64,000 nucleotides of DNA from a virus (IMGVR_UViG_3300017780_003084:1-64000), one strand, 5' to 3'. Positions 1 to 58,126 are shown, counted from the first letter of the stretch. Numbers and translations are program-made. Notes: generated by a model from the letters alone, not told the origin.

Positions 1-1722
1 ACGCAAATAGACTCTACATTTACGGGTACTGGATTACTTGATGGGTGGACGCTCTCTGCCACGGCGGTAAATAACAATGGTGTGAATCAGGTAGACGTTA
101 CATCTGGAGCTAGCTCCGACAGACTTATTGAGTTTACAAGCAGCACAGTAGCAGGTAAGACATATACAGTGACGCTAACAACCGTCACTTACAGTAATGT
201 GTATGTCTACCAAGTAAATCCAATTGTACCAATAGGAATTACAGGAGCAGCAGGCACCTACTCGTTTAGTTTCGTTGCATCGGCTAATAATGTACCGATT
301 ATTTTGTGTGCGAGTGGGGCATCAGAACGAAAGATTATCGACAGCATTTCAGTCAAACTCGCAGAACCAGATCGCTCAGTTAAAAACAACAGCTTGGTCG
401 TCAATGGCACACTGACAAAAACAGAGGCTGCAGTAGGTGCGCAACTGGTCTGGTACTCTGGATTCTCAGGCGCAAACTATTTAGAGCAGCCTTACAATTC
501 TAATCTGGATTTTGGTACAGGCGAATTTCATTACATGCTGAGGGCAACGCTGCCGACTGCTGGAGGTGCTGCTGGTGTACTGATATCGAGAGGTGATGGT
601 ACTGCGCTTGGTAATCTCGTGTTGCAGGTAGAGGGAGATAATAAGATTTCTCTTTATATGCATAATGGTGTGGTTGATGCCTTGATTGCACAAGCTGTCG
701 CGCAACCGTCTAATGTACCGCTTTGTATTTTAGTCATGCGATCTGCTACAACAGCATACATTTATATAAACGATGTATTAGCTGCATCTGGCGCTCTATC
801 TACAACGATGACTAATACTACTGGCGTACTACGTGTTGGATTGTCCCGAACTGGTACATCTCCGCATCGGGGGGCTATTGCTTTGCTTCGTGCAGGAGCT
901 ACAGCCCCAAGCGCAGATCAAATAGCCCACATCTACCACACGGAACTGGCTCTATTTCAACCAAATGCTAAATGCACTTTAGACGGAGCAATCAGCACAG
1001 TAGCGAGTCTTGCGTATGACGAAGATACAGACTTACTTCATGCTGCTACACCTTGGGGACGTTCCAGCTTTAACAATCTTGTTCGAGTCGAATCGGAAGC
1101 TACAACAGTAGGTGCAAGTGTAAAAGTAGCTGCGAAAAGTGGATCTCTTTTGAGCTATGGCACAGGTGCGAAAGTGTATCTGCCTGCTGTAAATCTGCGA
1201 GTAGGGGAAAGTACAAGCAAGGTTAAAATCGGGCTAGGTAACGTTGATAACACATCGGATGCAAATAAACCGATCAGCACTACGACTCAAGCTGCGTTGG
1301 ATGCAAAGCAAGCTACTTTGGTTTCCGGTACTAATGCTAGGACGGTCAATGGTAATTCATTACTCGGAGCGGGTGATGTTGAAGTCGGGTATCGAAATAT
1401 CCCACCAAATCCGCAAATAGTGAACTACACGGTAACTAAGACTAGTGCTGGGAAGAATGTTCGACACCCAGCGGCTGACACTACCGCTAGAACTTTCACG
1501 ATAGATAGCAATGCAAATCAAGCTTGGGTAGACGGTACTACGATATCTATTCAAAACAAACACGGCGCTGGTGTGATTACCATTTCCGTGACTACTGATC
1601 CGATGCGCCTTCTGGGGGTTGGTACTACAGGCAGTCGGACTTTGGCAGCTGATGGTTTTGCTACGCTTGTCTGGGATGCTGTGGAACTAGATTGGTCTAT
1701 TACGGGTGTGGGGGTGAGCTAA
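1..1722 (+). CDS. Tail fibre / receptor-binding protein, 5'-truncated by the window edge
   Basis: Frame 1 is open from base 1 (TQIDSTFTGTG...), so the GTG at 82 is not the true start. Contains a LamG/concanavalin-like beta-rich region, the tail repeat GLGNVDNTSDANKPIS, and a C-terminal GSRTLAADG..W.ITGVG module typical of fibres. Confidence 0.8.
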   Translation, partial: TQIDSTFTGTGLLDGWTLSATAVNNNGVNQVDVTSGASSDRLIEFTSSTVAGKTYTVTLTTVTYSNVYVYQVNPIVPIGITGAAGTYSFSFVASANNVPIILCASGASERKIIDSISVKLAEPDRSVKNNSLVVNGTLTKTEAAVGAQLVWYSGFSGANYLEQPYNSNLDFGTGEFHYMLRATLPTAGGAAGVLISRGDGTALGNLVLQVEGDNKISLYMHNGVVDALIAQAVAQPSNVPLCILVMRSATTAYIYINDVLAASGALSTTMTNTTGVLRVGLSRTGTSPHRGAIALLRAGATAPSADQIAHIYHTELALFQPNAKCTLDGAISTVASLAYDEDTDLLHAATPWGRSSFNNLVRVESEATTVGASVKVAAKSGSLLSYGTGAKVYLPAVNLRVGESTSKVKIGLGNVDNTSDANKPISTTTQAALDAKQATLVSGTNARTVNGNSLLGAGDVEVGYRNIPPNPQIVNYTVTKTSAGKNVRHPAADTTARTFTIDSNANQAWVDGTTISIQNKHGAGVITISVTTDPMRLLGVGTTGSRTLAADGFATLVWDAVELDWSITGVGVS

Positions 1723-2309
1723 TGAGTGCGATACAGCAAATGTTGGCTGCATACGGCTCAGTTGCAGTTGCACTTCCTCCGACAACTTGGAATCCATCTG
1801 ATAAACAAGCTGGTATATCGCTTAGTGGTAGCAATCTTATAGCGACAAGTACCAGTGGTTCTGACGGTGTACGTGGAACAAATTCAAAGTCTTCTGGTAA
1901 ACATTATTTTGAAGTGACACTAACAGGAGGAGCCACTAATGCATTTATAGGTATTGCTTCGAGTGCTTGGGATTCGAGCCATCAATTAGCAAGTGACGCT
2001 AATAGTGCTTGTTATGTAAATAATATTTTGTATACAAATGGATTTGGTACTTCTGGCGCGGCTACCACAATGGTAATCGGGGATGTTATTGGTGTTGCAG
2101 TTGATGTGTCAAATCATAGAATATATTGGTCTAGAAATAACACTTGGCAAAACTCCGCATCACCAACGACAGGTACAGGAGGCTTGGATTACATAACAAC
2201 AATTCCAGTGTTCCCTGCATTTTTCACAAACACTGCTGGAAGAACTGCAACAATAGCTGTCAGCACATTAACATATTCACCTCCATCTGGCTTCACTGCT
2301 TGGGGTTAA
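1722..2309 (+). CDS. SPRY/B30.2-like domain virion protein
   Basis: TWNPSDK...LSGSNL...SGKHYFEV...GDVIGVAVD motifs; the ATG overlaps the upstream TAA. Confidence 0.75.
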   Translation: MSAIQQMLAAYGSVAVALPPTTWNPSDKQAGISLSGSNLIATSTSGSDGVRGTNSKSSGKHYFEVTLTGGATNAFIGIASSAWDSSHQLASDANSACYVNNILYTNGFGTSGAATTMVIGDVIGVAVDVSNHRIYWSRNNTWQNSASPTTGTGGLDYITTIPVFPAFFTNTAGRTATIAVSTLTYSPPSGFTAWG

Positions 2310-2324
2310 TAAATAGGGGATTTT

Positions 2325-2357
2325 ATGCAATACTTTCAAATAAACGACAAAGGATAG
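2325..2357 (+). pseudogene. Relic N-terminus (MQYFQINDKG*) paralogous to the start of the next gene
   Basis: Own RBS (TAGGGGA); MQYFQIN aligns with MEYLQIK at 2361. Confidence 0.6.
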
Positions 2358-2360
2358 AAC

Positions 2361-3014
2361 ATGGAATACCTACAAATCAAAAACGGTGAAGCACTACAAA
2401 TTAACACACAAGGGAATGTTGAGTGGGATGCTACGCATTACTGCCCTGCATCAGCACTCACACTAGAAGAGGCCATGTTGTTTGATGTCCACTGTTTGAT
2501 GGCTACAGAGCATCCAGTGTTTGACCCTAGCACGCATAAATGTTACCGCGATGGTGCTGAGTTTGTGGAAAACAAATGGCGATACAAGTGGGTGATAGTT
2601 ACCTTAACAGCAGAAGAGATCACTGCTAAATTACAGTCACGTAAAGTGCAGACACTTGCGCAGATTAATAACGATGACAACCGTATTTATGCTGATGTAG
2701 TTGGTAATAAGACCACTGAGTATCTAAAAGCTGCTGAAGATGCTAGAGCATATAAAGCTGCAGGATACCCAAAAGATGAAGTACCTGATTATGTTCAGTC
2801 ATGGGCTGATGCAAAGAGATGGACTGCTCGACAAGCTTGTGATGATATTTTATTACAGGAAATGATGTGGCAAGGTGCAGCAAAGCTTATTCGTGATTAC
2901 CGTTTGAAAGCCAAAGAAGCTGTTAAACGTGCTACAACTATTACAGAAGTGGAAACTGCTATGTTGATTTGGAATGGTTTTGTGAACAACATCAGAACTC
3001 AATTGGGAGTGTAA
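2361..3014 (+). CDS. Tail fibre assembly/chaperone-like protein
   Basis: 217 aa directly after the fibre genes; PVFDPSTHK and VPDYVQSWADAK...W..A...IRDYRL..K patterns resemble Tfa-like proteins. Confidence 0.6.
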   Translation: MEYLQIKNGEALQINTQGNVEWDATHYCPASALTLEEAMLFDVHCLMATEHPVFDPSTHKCYRDGAEFVENKWRYKWVIVTLTAEEITAKLQSRKVQTLAQINNDDNRIYADVVGNKTTEYLKAAEDARAYKAAGYPKDEVPDYVQSWADAKRWTARQACDDILLQEMMWQGAAKLIRDYRLKAKEAVKRATTITEVETAMLIWNGFVNNIRTQLGV

Positions 3015-45458: not shown

Positions 45459-46309
45459 ATGGAATTATTCTTTGCTGTCTTTCTTGTCACAACATTTTCT
45501 TGTATCATCATCTCTGCGTTATTTGGAATCGTTCTTAAAAGTAGTAATAAACGGAGTAATTACGCATTAGACGATGCAGTAGAAATGTTACAATTGTTTA
45601 GCCCATTTATTGGCTTGTTAGTTGGATTAATTGCAGCTATTTGTAAATAATTTGCACAGAATCGAAAGCCTAGATTTTACACTAGGCTTCTTTCAAACAT
45701 TACTAGGTATATTATGTCCTACGCTATTCCATATAAAGGTTTGACACGTTTTTTCAACTCCGAGCAAGATGCTGTCACATTTTGTAAGCTTGCTATGATT
45801 AAAACGGATGTTATCATTAAGGCGCAGTTATCATGAAATTCTGTCCAATATTGAAACAGCAGTTTGATTATGCTTTTAACTCAATTGCTAACTTAGATTA
45901 CTCTAGGTGTCTGGGAACAATACGTATTCGAGACCTCGAAAAGAGTGAAATATTCCTACATGGACAAGATGCTCATGATTTGTTAGATTTAGCTTATGAT
46001 ATGTCAGAAAATCGTTTCATAGAGGAAACATTCGAAGACTGTCTCATTCTTTGCTTATATTCACACGTTGACTTGTTAGGGAATTAAATTATGTTTGCTT
46101 TTTATAACTCATCACTAGGTATGATTAAAATTTACAATCATGGCACAGACTGGCAACTAGTTTTCAAAGATGGTGGAGAACGTTGGTTTTCTATTTGGGA
46201 ACGTTGGTTTTCTATTTGGAAACATTCAATAATGGACAGCTTAGAACGTGCAATTTATTCTGTTGATGATAGTTTTGTCCCTGATTTACTAGTTATTTGC
46301 GAGGTTTAA
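45459..46309 (+). CDS. Early ORFs (45459-45650 membrane; ~45714-45836; 45833-46087; 46091-46309)
   Basis: RBS present; a hairpin at 45664-45694 separates the first ORF from the rest. Confidence 0.6.
46178..46219 (+). repeat. Perfect 21-bp tandem duplication (ERWFSIW x2)
   Basis: GAACGTTGGTTTTCTATTTGG occurs twice, in frame. Confidence 0.95.
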
Positions 46310-46734: not shown

Positions 46735-46759
46735 GACAGATCAATTACAAGCAGCATGC

Positions 46760-46789
46760 AAAGCCTATCGAGTGATAGGCTTTTGTTTT
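46760..46789 (+). terminator. Intrinsic terminator ending the early operon
   Basis: AAAGCCTATC-GAGT-GATAGGCTTTTGTTTT. Confidence 0.9.
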
Positions 46790-46922
46790 ATGTGCTGTCA
46801 CTTGGTAAGCGTTGATTGTTATATCATGGACAAGGTAGATAACATGTGTGTGTGGTAGTGTCTTACACAGTGTCTTACATGGGCGTTATCGGTGTCATGC
46901 TGATACCATGTAGAGGTAAGGG

Positions 46923-46981
46923 TTATCCGATAGCTTATAGTTATCCACATAGTTTGTATGTTATCCACAGGGTTATCCACA
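46923..46981 (+). promoter_or_regulatory. DnaA-box cluster
   Basis: TTATCCACA at 46941, 46961 and 46973; degenerate TTATCCGAT at 46923. Confidence 0.8.
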
Positions 46982-47020
46982 GGTTAGGGTCAATCGCAAC
47001 CTTTGCAGCTAGTAAGGGGG

Positions 47021-47057
47021 AAAGTGGTCTGACCAATTCAAAGTGGTACTACCAATT
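47021..47057. promoter_or_regulatory. Tandem GntR/FadR(PdhR)-type operator-like palindromes
   Basis: AAAGTGGTCTGACCAATT and AAAGTGGTACTACCAATT (TGGT-N3-ACCA core). Confidence 0.55.
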
Positions 47058-47378
47058 GATAAACTTCAAAACAATAACATTTACACAACACATACACTTA
47101 TCATCTTGATAAGCTTGCCAAATACATCACATCTACACTCGATTAGATCATATCATCGCAGTACCTTAGCCAGTCAATCTATCATAGCATCACTCTAACA
47201 TCGCTCACAATACCGATTGTAAGCCATTGGAGGTATGCACAAGGCACGTTCTTGGGCTGTCCTATACGTCACTATATCCAATGATTTAAACGTCTGTAAT
47301 CGCTTGCATTGCGACACCTAAACAGGTGGTTAGTTCCTATCCATGCGGGTTTCGATGATGTGGTAGATATTTTACAAC

Positions 47379-47399
47379 TGTTCCACGGTATGTTCCACG
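47379..47399 (+). repeat. Two parS-half-site-like 9-mers
   Basis: TGTTCCACG at 47379 and 47391. Confidence 0.5.
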
Positions 47400-47732
47400 A
47401 GGCTAGCGCCCTGTTAAACAACACTTGTGCCTCTGACCATTTTCAGACATCACTCCCTCACAGATATATTCCCACACAGCTCAAATATCCCTGCCAATAA
47501 ATGTCACTTCCTGAAAAATTTTTATAGAAAATTTGACGTTTGAAACACTTCCAAGACACTCTTTACAGATATTTTCTGTACAGAATGCTAATAATTGTGT
47601 CTCGAACACAACAATAATTTACAATTTTTAATTTTCAGCGTATTGGGAAGAATTTCAGGAAGTATAGATAGCGATATCAATATGATTTAATATGCTTTAG
47701 GGAAGCGTCTTATAGTGGGAATTAGACGTAAT

Positions 47733-47790
47733 AAAACGATTTAAACGCTCATCCCATAGAAACATACTAGGACGACGTTTAAATCGTTTT
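47733..47790. repeat. Perfect 15-bp inverted repeat with a 28-bp spacer
   Basis: AAAACGATTTAAACG ... CGTTTAAATCGTTTT. Confidence 0.9.
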
Positions 47791-47821
47791 GAGGGTGCTT
47801 TTGCTAGGATAAGAAGACTGA

Positions 47822-51140: not shown

Positions 51141-52304
51141 TTAGAGATTGGGAGGGATGTCAAGAGAAATTTCTTTCAACCCTGCACATAATTCCAGCAC
51201 TTCCTCTTTCCTGTCAATGCTAATACTCTCTCGTCTGAAGCCTTCGCAGGAGATTAAGCCAGTTTTGTGTAGAGCTTTGATAGAATTCTCCACTGATATC
51301 ACTTTATTACCAGACCCTTCGAAGATTCTTGTTGAGAGGATTTTGTAGCCTAGCTCTTTTAAGTTCTTACGATGAGTTGTAAGTCTGTTGTCTAGTTTGT
51401 TTGTGATGCCATATCCTAGGATTGCTCCAAAGTCTGTTTGGATTTCTAGGAGGTATAGTGAGCCTAGTTTGGTTTTGTCATAGCCTGTTATTGGAGGGTT
51501 GCATTCTATACATTCGTAGCCTATCGCAGATGTACTATCATGTACGCGAGAGTATAACCCATGTATCTTACAAACAAAAGTAGGGAACCAGTAGTTACCT
51601 TTCTTTACTGCACCAATAACAGATACATTCTCATTATTACCATCTGAAACCCTTCTTTTAGCCATTTCCGATATATAATCCCCAGATAACTTCTTCTTGG
51701 CAGAACAATAGCAAGGTATCTTACCTTTATCAAGATTGTTCAAGGTACTTTCAAACAAACTCTCAAGTCCTTTGGATTCGCAAATCTTACAATGAAATCC
51801 GCACCAAACACTACTGCCGAATTTCTTGCCAGTATCCCATACTGCGTAAGATGGATTGTTCATGTTGTATTTAGATAGAGTTTCACTGGCAGAATGAGGA
51901 ATTCCTAAGTTCCCATCTCCAGCAAAGAAACTGTTGATCGAATTTATAGTGAATTTTATTCCCATCCTATTGCAGAAAAGATTTACTTCAGTATTACTTG
52001 GTTTTCCTGAAATTACTCCAAACCCTAAAAATTTAATTGGGAGGTTTTCGGAAACAATTTTACGATCAATCTTGATTTTATACTGCAACAAGGAAATTCT
52101 GGGATTTTTGGCACAACCACATGGAATACTTCCTTTTCTTAAAGCAGTATAAACTTGCTCAAATACTGCATCACCATATAACTCAGGGTCTTTTGCACAA
52201 ACCAGACATTTGACTTTTACATAACCGCCTTTAGCACGGCTAACAACTACAAGATTACCTTCATTAAATGTTTCTCCAACTCTACTTTTATTATATTCCC
52301 TCAT
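51141..52304 (-). CDS. Hef-like homing endonuclease with Zn-ribbon repeats and a C-terminal GIY-YIG-like domain
   Basis: Repeated C..C and IPC.C motifs; GYDKTKLGSLYLL...GYGITN....RL..H. Confidence 0.7.
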   Translation of the reverse strand: MREYNKSRVGETFNEGNLVVVSRAKGGYVKVKCLVCAKDPELYGDAVFEQVYTALRKGSIPCGCAKNPRISLLQYKIKIDRKIVSENLPIKFLGFGVISGKPSNTEVNLFCNRMGIKFTINSINSFFAGDGNLGIPHSASETLSKYNMNNPSYAVWDTGKKFGSSVWCGFHCKICESKGLESLFESTLNNLDKGKIPCYCSAKKKLSGDYISEMAKRRVSDGNNENVSVIGAVKKGNYWFPTFVCKIHGLYSRVHDSTSAIGYECIECNPPITGYDKTKLGSLYLLEIQTDFGAILGYGITNKLDNRLTTHRKNLKELGYKILSTRIFEGSGNKVISVENSIKALHKTGLISCEGFRRESISIDRKEEVLELCAGLKEISLDIPPNL

Positions 52305-53106
52305 CTCCATCCCATTTGTTATCTCTTTCACAATCTATATAGAAAGAAGCTTCATCAAAATAATTAAATAAATCCTCATCTACCTCTTTATCCACAGTAT
52401 TTGAAGCCCAAACAAGAATATCAGGCTCAACAACATATACTTTTTCCTCTATAGAAGAATTAGTATATATGCCTACTTTTTCATCACTATACTTTTCTAC
52501 GCAAGTATATATATGGGATATAATAGCGTTACGGTTCTCAAACTCACTAACTAAGTTCTCAACCATGTTGATTGTTGATTGTGCATCTGTACCATTACCT
52601 AACTTACTGCCTGCATACGTTAATGAAACAATAGCCCATCTCACACTGTTAGCGTAAGAAGAATCAAGATTAAATAAATCAATATAATTACTGACCTCAT
52701 CCTCAATCCTGTCACTAATTAACTTTGTTGACTGCATTAATTCAGTAAATGATTGTTGTGCTTTGTGTGGCTGTAGCCAGTATGGGCGTACAAGACAGTC
52801 TTTGTGTTCACGTAGTTTTGTTTTGATACGATTAAATATCTTATCTTCTTTTGTTTTGTCTTCCTTAGTGAATGTGTTTGTGTGCAAGGTTCTAATGATG
52901 TGTCGGACTTCAATATTTGTGATTCCTTCTTTGCTTCTTGCTTTATTCATTGTTTGTGCAAGAATTTCATCATCTGTTTTGTGTTTCTTCACTGTCTTGA
53001 GGTTTGTTTTGCACCATATTTCACTACACCCTAGTGTTTGTGCAATCTCTTTGTATGTGCAACCTTCTTCCCTTAATTTTTGTGCTTGTTTGGTATCAAC
53101 CTTCAT
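52291..53106 (-). CDS. HTH DNA-binding protein
   Basis: N-terminal LREEGCTYKEIAQTLGCSEIWCK; own promoter. Confidence 0.7.
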   Translation of the reverse strand: MKVDTKQAQKLREEGCTYKEIAQTLGCSEIWCKTNLKTVKKHKTDDEILAQTMNKARSKEGITNIEVRHIIRTLHTNTFTKEDKTKEDKIFNRIKTKLREHKDCLVRPYWLQPHKAQQSFTELMQSTKLISDRIEDEVSNYIDLFNLDSSYANSVRWAIVSLTYAGSKLGNGTDAQSTINMVENLVSEFENRNAIISHIYTCVEKYSDEKVGIYTNSSIEEKVYVVEPDILVWASNTVDKEVDEDLFNYFDEASFYIDCERDNKWDGDEGI

Positions 53107-53238: not shown

Positions 53239-53334
53239 TTAAGCCTTCTCAACCCTCTCCCTAGCAACCTTAAAATACTTCTCATCAAGCTCAATTCCTA
53301 TGAAGCTTCTGTTAGTGTTTTTACAAGCTACTCC
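53239..53334 (-). pseudogene. Orphan C-terminus of a DNA methyltransferase
   Basis: Reads GVACKNTNRSFIGIELDEKYFKVARERVEKA*, in a frame overlapping the stop of the intact MTase. Confidence 0.85.
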
Positions 53335-54083
53335 TTTATAATCAACTCAACATCTAAGTTATTCGTTGTAATACACTCCTTAACTCTACTACAACCTATT
53401 TTGAAATATTCTTTATCTAGCTCAATACCAATTGCATTTCTTTTAGTATTCATGGCTGCTACAATAGTTGTTGAACTACCCATAGTAAAGTCCAACACTG
53501 TATCTCCTTCATTACTGTAAGTCTTGATTAAGTATTCCATTAGAGCAACAGGCTTTTGTGTTGGGTGCATTCCTCTCTCGCAATCAAAACGTTGTACTGT
53601 CCTTGGATACCGAGTTGTGTCTCCTCCAACGTAGTTTCTGACATTATCCCCGTTGTATATAGAACCTTGGGAAGCCCCTCTAGCAGAGTTTGTAGGAGAG
53701 TGCCCTTCTGTCTTCTGTGGATTGTACCAAATTCCAGAGGGCATAAACACAACTACATCTTCATGCGCTGTAAGAGGTCTTTTCTTAGCATTAGGAAAGT
53801 TTGTAGCTCGATTTTTCTCCCATACCCAACAATACTTAAACCAAGGAAGATTACTAGAAATTAATGTAGTTGTAAATGGTTGAGAAGCTGTCAGGACAAT
53901 AGCTCCATTAGACTTAATAATGCGCTTCAACTGCTCCCACATAGGTTCTAGTGGAATTATTGAATCCCATTTACAAGCTGTTGTCCCGTAAGGAGGGTCT
54001 GTAACAATCAAATCAATACTCCCATCAGGAATACCCTTCATAACTTCTAAACAATCTCCATTGTACAATTCTATTTTACTCAT
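53328..54083 (-). CDS. N4-C/N6-A DNA methyltransferase, beta class
   Basis: LYNGDCLEVM, VTDPPY, HPTQKPVALMEYLI, VLDFTMGS, IGIELD. Confidence 0.93.
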   Translation of the reverse strand: MSKIELYNGDCLEVMKGIPDGSIDLIVTDPPYGTTACKWDSIIPLEPMWEQLKRIIKSNGAIVLTASQPFTTTLISSNLPWFKYCWVWEKNRATNFPNAKKRPLTAHEDVVVFMPSGIWYNPQKTEGHSPTNSARGASQGSIYNGDNVRNYVGGDTTRYPRTVQRFDCERGMHPTQKPVALMEYLIKTYSNEGDTVLDFTMGSSTTIVAAMNTKRNAIGIELDKEYFKIGCSRVKECITTNNLDVELIIKE

Positions 54084-57367: not shown

Positions 57368-58117
57368 TCAATCATAAGCTGTTTCTAAGTCTTTAAAAGC
57401 CCTAGTAGCAGGGTCGTACTGCGGTGTAAGTACTTCCCCATCAACTTTCTTCTTACGTGGCTTAGATGGCTTTTTAAGCGCCTTCTGAGCGGCTTTCTCG
57501 AGCTTTTCTACTTGCTCCTTATACCAAGCATTGCGTTGCTCAGAACGTTCCATCCAGCCTTGAGCATCCAACCAGATATTCTTTCCTAGCATCATTTCAT
57601 CAAACTCTTGATCTGACAAGAATCCTGAATAGATTTCCTTGTAATATTCGTACAAGAACTTCTTGTCAAAATCACTCTTAGCATGGTACTCATTTAAGTT
57701 ACCAAAACTACCACTAGAACCGTTATGGATCAAGCTGTTAAAGTTACGAGACAGTTCAAAACTATCTGCTTGTAATAATATGTGTGTTCCTGCTGAATGC
57801 ACTCCTCCAGAGGCTACGATGTGTATTGGACAAGCACATTTCTCCATAGCGTGAATGAACCCACCTGACACATCAACGTTACCACCACAACTTTGCAAAC
57901 TAATAACTACTTGGTCTTCTTCTTCAGCAGCTTCAAGAGCTTCAATACCCATTGTCACTTGCTCCATACTAATAACAGGAGCGTGGAAGTTAATCTTGAA
58001 CACCCCTGTTTTATTTGGGGTGTAGGACACAGTGATACGGTTATTGTCTTGGTATTCTTCTGAAAAGTTATTACGAGCTTGTAGTTTGTTGATATTTTCT
58101 TTGTAATTTGGTTTCAT
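57368..58117 (-). CDS. ClpP-like protease subunit
   Basis: LQSCGG.V, GGVHSAGTHIL (Ser), SLIH (His), WLDA. Confidence 0.85.
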   Translation of the reverse strand: MKPNYKENINKLQARNNFSEEYQDNNRITVSYTPNKTGVFKINFHAPVISMEQVTMGIEALEAAEEEDQVVISLQSCGGNVDVSGGFIHAMEKCACPIHIVASGGVHSAGTHILLQADSFELSRNFNSLIHNGSSGSFGNLNEYHAKSDFDKKFLYEYYKEIYSGFLSDQEFDEMMLGKNIWLDAQGWMERSEQRNAWYKEQVEKLEKAAQKALKKPSKPRKKKVDGEVLTPQYDPATRAFKDLETAYD

Positions 58118-58126
58118 GTGTTCTCC

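Follow-up and report, generated by a model that had tools for sequence, protein, structure and literature searches.

Why does a phage maintain its largest gene-free stretch directly behind an early-type operon, filled with sites that resemble those of host DNA-binding proteins? The window analysed here comprises the first 64 kb (64,000 nucleotides) of a 90,329-bp virus record of freshwater metagenome origin, and the stretch in question, from here on called the gap, extends from 46,735 to 47,821. The original prediction had described it as a protein-free array of binding sites for DnaA, ParB, a regulator of the GntR/PdhR type and CRP-like proteins, and had proposed an undescribed landing pad, comparable to the injection-stop region of phage T5, that could pause or pull the incoming DNA, titrate host factors, sense the state of the host or shield the DNA. 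The genome codes for a family-B DNA polymerase, a primase-helicase, a ligase and a ribonucleotide reductase. A comparison of the polymerase places it closest, among named phages, to Limnohabitans phage DC31, Curvibacter phage P26059A and Acinetobacter phages, e.g. TaPaz, all with less than 60% identity. Both ends of the record (1 and 90,329) are located within one long open frame and therefore represent an assembly break, not genome ends. This very long frame (window 1–2410 plus G000 87221–90329) is probably a tail-fibre-like variable gene and is the site where assemblies of this phage break: the ends of an 84.8-kb Logan contig are also found in or near it.

On the left the gap is bordered by a rightward early-type operon of small genes without known relatives and on the right by a leftward operon. 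Two convergent terminators enclose it, with about 950 bp (951 bp) between them. The longest open reading frame inside this stretch comprises at most 87 aa, and its frames are interrupted in relatives by indels that are not multiples of three. The original description of a cis region behind an early-type operon that codes for no protein of its own was supported, and all eight motifs listed in the original prediction are present at their positions. Comparison of the gap by blastn with 50,697 GenBank phages gave zero matches, Rfam gave nothing relevant on the window, and no tRNAs were detected in the window. For the 187-aa gene to the right of the gap no relatives were found in IMG/VR. Further along the leftward block an N6/N4 DNA methylase precedes a 271-aa protein in which a helix-turn-helix weakly resembles sigma-70 region 4 (53328–54083 and 52291–53106, both on the minus strand). 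To the left of the gap, the small ORF at 46091–46309 contains an exact 21-nt tandem duplication (GAACGTTGGTTTTCTATTTGG twice, 46178–46219); it is the longest close direct repeat of the genome, and the protein would gain a 7-residue repeat. The features of the gap and its borders are as follows.

46760–46783, plus strand: intrinsic terminator closing the rightward small-gene operon, a 10-bp stem followed by a T-run; its context TTTTATGTGCTG is kept in the homologous contigs G001, G002 and G004
46857–46879, plus strand: two 11-nt direct repeats AGTGTCTTACA (46857, 46869) with a 12-bp period, a variable, iteron-like repeat position
46923–46981, plus strand: DnaA-box cluster, a degenerate TTATCCGAT (46923) and three perfect TTATCCACA (46941, 46961, 46973)
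47021–47057, plus strand: two 18-nt units AAAGTGGT-N3-ACCAATT, 19 bp apart, each a TGGT-N3-ACCA dyad (TGGTCTGACCAATT at 47025, TGGTACTACCAATT at 47044)
47097–47113, no strand assigned: dyad CTTATCA-TCT-TGATAAG with 7-bp arms, identical in G004
47162–47700, no strand assigned: conserved non-coding core of about 540 bp, a candidate terminal-repeat/packaging and/or origin element
47365–47373, plus strand: AGATATWTT box 1 (GTAGATATTTTA); GTAGATATTT is invariant in four phages
47379–47399, plus strand: tandem half-parS TGTTCCACG-GTA-TGTTCCACG (47379, 47391); both 9-mers are invariant in four phages
47432–47447: palindrome TCTGA-6-TCAGA
47462–47470, plus strand: AGATATWTT box 2 (CAGATATATT); AGATATATT is invariant in four phages
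47505–47545, no strand assigned: A/T-rich tract GAAAAATTTTTATAGAAAATTTGACGTTTGAAAC, conserved in the four-way alignment
47564–47580, plus strand: AGATATWTT box 3 inside the dyad TACAGATATTTTCTGTA (TACAGA-5-TCTGTA); CAGATATTT..CTGTA is kept in all four phages
47595–47611: palindrome TTGTGT-5-ACACAA
47733–47790, minus strand: terminator of the leftward operon, a perfect hairpin with a 15-bp stem, then TTTTATTA on the minus strand

The close direct repeats of the gap are clearly non-random. Counting exact repeats of at least 9 nt that are at most 25 nt apart, we found four in 951 bp. Shuffled sequences had a mean of 0.05 and none of 500 reached four; windows of the same size throughout the genome averaged 0.18 and never exceeded 2. 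Short palindromes occur at about twice the expectation (P 0.02–0.11). The symmetry of TCTGA-6-TCAGA and TTGTGT-5-ACACAA is lost in relatives and both therefore look like chance. The CRP-like palindromes proposed originally are not conserved and occur near chance level, and we dropped this assignment.

As true homologues of the gap we could find only three IMG/VR contigs (G001, G002 and G004). Searching IMG/VR and metagenomes with the pattern GTAGATATTT-N0-9-TGTTCCACG returned mostly unrelated coding DNA and, as homologues, only the three known ones; the pattern TGTCACT-N-GAAAAATTTTTA merely added two unrelated coding loci. In the alignment the gap falls into two parts: a left part (approximately 46.8–47.16 kb) that evolves rapidly, and the core. 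At the DNA level the core is 71–72% identical to G001, G002 (query 428–943) and G004, which is the same level as in neighbouring genes, and the genes flanking it differ between relatives. Its conservation is block-wise, with indels of 1, 5 and 11 nt and no reading frame kept. Invariant blocks in the four-way alignment are GTAGATATTT, the tandem TGTTCCACG-N2-3-TGTTCCACG, AGATATATT, GTCACT..GAAAA.TTTTTA and CAGATATTT..CTGTA. The AGATATWTT boxes on the plus strand start at 47365, 47462 and 47567, i.e. 97 and 105 bp apart, and a further conserved A/T tract is located at 47600–47640. No conserved RNA fold was obtained on either strand (RNAalifold; −19 and −13 kcal/mol over about 500 columns), and the covariation terms were positive, i.e. 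unfavourable, in an alignment of four sequences, which are few for strong covariation tests. Since neither a reading frame nor an RNA fold is conserved, conservation appears to act on the DNA itself. No second copy of the core or of its blocks was found elsewhere in the genome. Taken as a whole, the pattern marks the core as a unique cis element that is conserved as DNA.

Within the rapidly evolving left part, the AGTGTCTTACA pair aligns opposite (G)TTATACAGT repeats of G002 and G004, which also have a 12-bp period. Adjoining these repeats, both G002 (L060:4560–4610) and G004 (L374:1375–1400) have the core of a LexA/SOS box in the form of a CTGT-N8-ACAG dyad (TACTGTATAAGTGTACAGTG, TGCTGTATGTTTGTACAGTA); the window and G001 are without this dyad. 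At about the same aligned place as the 47097–47113 dyad, G001 and G002 have other palindromes. The motif TGGT-N3-ACCA has three sites in the genome, two of them within 47021–47057. These two units had been taken as binding sites of a PdhR/GntR-type regulator, a reading that we could not uphold: they are not conserved in G001, G002 and G004, and a GntR match is absent among the proteins flanking the gap.

The DnaA-box cluster also belongs to the left part. Its three perfect boxes have the same orientation and lie within 41 bp, with start-to-start distances of 20 and 12 bp. Each reads GTTATCCACA, and two of the three share the longer form GTTATCCACAGG. We take their flanks to be similar to those of R1 and R4 in the oriC of E. 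coli. On both strands of the 90,329-bp genome TTATCCACA occurs six times, three copies being those within the 41 bp of the gap. The stretch thus contains a DnaA-box cluster in the sense of at least two consensus 9-mers TT(A/T)TNCACA within about 100 bp, and the three boxes are not noise. A DnaA-box cluster is absent anywhere in G001, G002 and G004, where the approximately 77–110 bp holding the boxes have no counterpart; the lineage-specific DNA around the boxes is limited to this length. A simple insertion of the cluster relative to G002 was considered and rejected, as in the alignment with G004 the adjacent 12-bp repeats are homologous but diverged. Because the boxes are missing from the three closest relatives, they would be dispensable for the role of the core and not the essential core of the region.

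In phage DC31 five perfect TTATCCACA (2 forward, 3 reverse) are found within 118 bp at the equivalent gap (PQ492658.1 19,820–20,750; L357:4820–5750), a gene-free stretch of 930 bp that starts after the terminator of the small-gene operon and is not convergent. A 15-mer, GTTATCCACAGGTTA, is common to the cluster of the window and that of DC31. The DC31 gap further contains three CCCAAAAACCTAC, several CAGTCAGAAA / CTAGACGGTTCAGTC and a duplicated TTATATAAGCGTTTACTTATATA; with these iteron-like and AT-rich repeats it looks like a classical replication origin. The paper on DC31 mentions neither genome ends, DnaA and an origin nor the boxes of this gap. The predicted DnaA sites therefore held as a perfect, clustered group with shared flanks that has a counterpart in DC31, but not as a feature common to the nearest relatives. 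With oriC, datA and the oriR of the plasmid prophage P1 the gap has in common that several consensus 9-mers are found within one short stretch; in contrast to these it has no adjacent unwinding element or initiator gene, and its boxes are not kept in close relatives. Tandem DnaA boxes were found in at least 119 IMG/VR contigs belonging to 60 flank groups. They are common in viral contigs, and the cluster is therefore an element of an ordinary kind. To call the locus undescribed was too strong also in view of T5, for which DnaA boxes after the pre-early genes have been published (bioRxiv 10.1101/866236).

Conservation in relatives, which failed for the TGGT-N3-ACCA units and the palindromes at 47432 and 47595, was found for the half-parS pair. 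The word TGTTCCACG is the left half of parS, and ParB of several species occupies the heptamers GTTCCAC/GTTTCAC in ChIP-seq (PMC7022226). Two copies of such a heptamer are present in the gap. In all three homologues the half-parS 9-mers are preserved letter for letter; the spacer (GTA, CT, GCA, GTA) and the flanks vary. The predicted ParB sites thus stood as an exactly kept pair, but not as a complete partition system: the full 16-bp parS palindrome TGTTNCACGTGNAACA is absent from the gap, which has only two half-sites in direct repeat, ParB_N gave zero matches at E ≤ 1 in the 90-kb genome while control genomes were matched, and DnaA domain IV was not found in the phage either. Compared with chromosomal parS and ParB (PMC7022226), the half-site is exact and shows the same tolerated variation (central C/T, outer bases). 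The phage sites differ in forming a direct repeat 11–13 bp apart without the 16-bp palindrome, in a lytic phage without parA/parB, and canonical loading sites of ParB do not consist of two direct-repeat half-sites. The simplest binder of the tandem would be a host protein whose specificity is ParB-like.

We surveyed IMG/VR for tandems with copies 11–13 bp apart and used the reversed word as control. The C form (tandem TGTTCCACG) was present in at least 65 distinct lineages, 43 of them outside long open frames, and the T form (tandem TGTTTCACG) in at least 77, of which 55 were outside long open frames. Non-coding tandem half-parS was thus found in at least 98 distinct phage lineages compared to 3 for the control word. 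The control itself occurred in 24 lineages, 21 times inside and 3 times outside open frames, and in 23 of the 24 with a spacer of 3 that is in coding phase. Around the tandems extra half-sites were 11-fold enriched, mostly in the same orientation. Nearby degenerate copies had their single mismatches at positions 1, 5 and 9 only, so that GTT.CAC was kept. Some of the surveyed loci (L012–L130, L502–L621) carry arrays of 5–9 copies with an 11-bp period, e.g. L127, L040 and L088. The contigs are unrelated and of very different G+C, their tandems are mostly non-coding, and several tandems are located beside terminase genes or near contig ends. Among the genes in the vicinity are those for both terminase subunits, small and large, as well as methylases and primase/helicases. 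A phage protein travelling with the tandem was not found, and neither was a ParB. Queries from two other half-parS families gave nothing useful in blastn against GenBank phages. A scan of bacterial genomes yielded at least 120 matches from many phyla, a number that is not comparable with the approximately 50 expected by chance. In the literature searched we found no description of a recurrent non-coding tandem half-parS in phages.

The position of the gap offers a further comparison. The large terminase subunit TerL of the phage (65790–66197 plus 66424–67590) is 41% identical to that of phage PaP1 over 376 aa, the portal protein 35% and the primase-helicase 50%, and the capsid and ribonucleotide reductase proteins also have homologues in PaP1. 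The ClpP-like gene (57368–58126, minus strand) matches PaP1 gp041 and is part of the same leftward block. For PaP1 a direct terminal repeat of 1,190 bp was established by run-off sequencing (PMC3652863), and it maps to the junction at which the rightward small-gene block stops and the leftward ClpP block has its 3' end, i.e. at the place of the gap. Phage C11 is reported to have a terminal repeat of 1,173 bp (PMC5175280). With the PaP1-like (Pakpunavirus) repeat the gap shares both neighbours, a related TerL and a similar size, the ends of the present phage being putative. In contrast, the end region of PaP1 has an HNH-like gene inside the repeat and neither DnaA box nor half-parS, and no similarity between the gap and this region was detected with an nhmmer profile of the core or with short-word blastn. 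Synteny with PaP1 is also imperfect: the replication module is inverted, and the polymerase of the phage has no match in PaP1. The 84.8-kb Logan contig runs through the gap; as an assembled contig it is uninformative on physical ends, as are the GenBank records of DC31, P26059A and TaPaz with their arbitrary or unexplained start points.

Two observations on the same genes may be added. The match to PaP1 TerL is split over two open frames (G000 65790–66197 and 66424–67590) with about 230 nt between them, which is consistent with an intervening sequence. A gene family that is repeated in the phage (window 6797–7459, minus strand; G000 64533–65552, plus strand; L060:5476–6111, minus strand) has its PaP1 homologue in gp157, which is located within the terminal repeat of that phage. 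The family probably represents mobile HNH-type endonucleases, and its copy in G002 is found directly beside the conserved core.

Because the gap sits where related phages have their genome ends, we tentatively favour the view that it is an end and packaging region of the phage genome at which host DnaA and probably also ParB would dock. It would then be a single cis-acting end region, the counterpart of the PaP1-type junction of direct terminal repeat and packaging after the early operon. The core of about 540 bp would be, or would contain, the terminal repeat together with terminase sites for cutting concatemers, and may double as a replication start. With a genome end beside the early genes, the DNA of the gap would be among the first or the last to enter the cell, and docking sites for host proteins may have accumulated there. 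The tandem half-parS (GTT[C/T]CAC), kept in all close relatives, would bind host ParB, and in the lineage of the window and in DC31 the clustered high-affinity DnaA boxes would be a target of host DnaA. Once bound, these proteins could keep the incoming end in place or organise it, a role like that suggested for the injection stop of T5, or could help to open the DNA.

The main rival, which is compatible with an end region, is a lytic replication origin, in which DnaA at the three boxes and/or a phage protein at the short repeats or AGATATWTT boxes would open the A/T tracts for loading of the primase-helicase. A unique, conserved, non-coding element with A/T tracts (47505–47545, 47600–47640) and phased boxes would suit such a role, particularly in a phage that has its own primase-helicase and PolB and no recognisable initiator, and some half-parS tandems of other phages adjoin primase/helicase genes. 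The gap of DC31 is even textbook-like: in addition to its five DnaA boxes it has AT-rich repeats and iteron-like repeats of three kinds. The arrangement in the window fits less well: about 550 bp separate the DnaA boxes from the conserved A/T tracts, the three closest relatives have no such boxes, the repeats form pairs and not arrays of three or more long iterons, and GC skew merely follows gene orientation. Boxes beside an A/T unwinding element with an initiator nearby, as in oriC or iteron origins, are thus not seen in the gap; there is no adjacent initiator gene, and the flanking proteins have no matches to initiator or DNA-binding families. We consider an origin rather unlikely on this balance.

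Still less probable in our view is a decoy or landing pad that pauses DNA injection in the manner of the T5 injection-stop region (iss) or titrates host DnaA, ParB and metabolic regulators. It is true that half-parS and perfect DnaA boxes are found together behind the early operon, and a model of this kind has been published for T5, whose untranslated region after the pre-early genes has approximately 8 DnaA boxes that are thought to be non-replicative (Davison, bioRxiv 10.1101/866236). The variable left part of the relatives moreover holds another host-type site, the CTGT-N8-ACAG dyad of G002 and G004, which at its homologous place suggests a turnover of host-factor sites. However, three boxes per genome are few for titration until a high copy number is reached, the relatives keep neither the PdhR- nor the CRP-like sites, and within the best-conserved part of the gap the half-parS pair is the sole match to a known host site. 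The architecture of T5 is also missing. Its boxes form pairs 3 bp apart inside the inverted repeats IRC/IRD with a fixed 52-bp spacer in all T5-like phages (bioRxiv 10.1101/866236). With the untranslated part of the left terminal repeat of T5 the gap has in common a large gene-free, repeat- and palindrome-rich stretch after (pre-)early genes with several DnaA boxes; its own boxes are direct with 12 and 20 bp spacing, are not embedded in large inverted repeats and have no equivalent in the nearest relatives, and a terminal repeat is here a candidate only. T5 is without half-parS, unlike the gap. E. coli, the host of T5, is not known to have a chromosomal ParB. The predicted likeness to T5 was thus strengthened with respect to position, since the gap is the positional equivalent of the PaP1 genome ends, and abandoned with respect to the layout of boxes and inverted repeats. 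Finally, we regard it as least likely that the gap is a locus for a non-coding RNA or a transcriptional buffer between the convergent operons, with the conserved blocks acting as promoter or processing signals. Such a role would agree with the two flanking terminators, with the −10-like TAAAAT and AATATC that AGATATWTT gives on the minus strand and with the exchange of the 47097–47113 dyad for other palindromes in G001 and G002; yet there was no Rfam match and no conserved fold or covariation, promoter-like sites number 9 compared to 9.7 in shuffles, and a class of promoters would be expected to show the boxes at other places of the genome too, where they are not found.

Read as an end region, the gap varies a known theme: like T5 it has DnaA boxes behind early genes, here combined with a PaP1-type end region. 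If this reading holds, the genome ends and packaging region would be located for a little-studied but abundant group of freshwater phages, the relatives of Limnohabitans and Curvibacter phages, and the observation of host DnaA boxes after early genes would be extended from T5 to an unrelated myovirus group. Of wider reach is the half-parS survey, in which the variation between copies is as expected for ParB. A bold extension, to which we assign a low probability, is that tandem TGTT[C/T]CACG-N2-4-TGTT[C/T]CACG represents a widespread undescribed cis-element by which phages without ParB would recruit host ParB to a unique non-coding site near the genome end or origin, e.g. to anchor, compact or position their DNA. 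In the present group it would be joined with a swappable module of host-factor sites, namely DnaA boxes in the lineage of the window and DC31 and a LexA-type dyad in G002 and G004. The recurrence in at least 98 lineages compared to 3 for the control therefore raises a testable question: do lytic phages make use of ParB, the segregation protein of their host?
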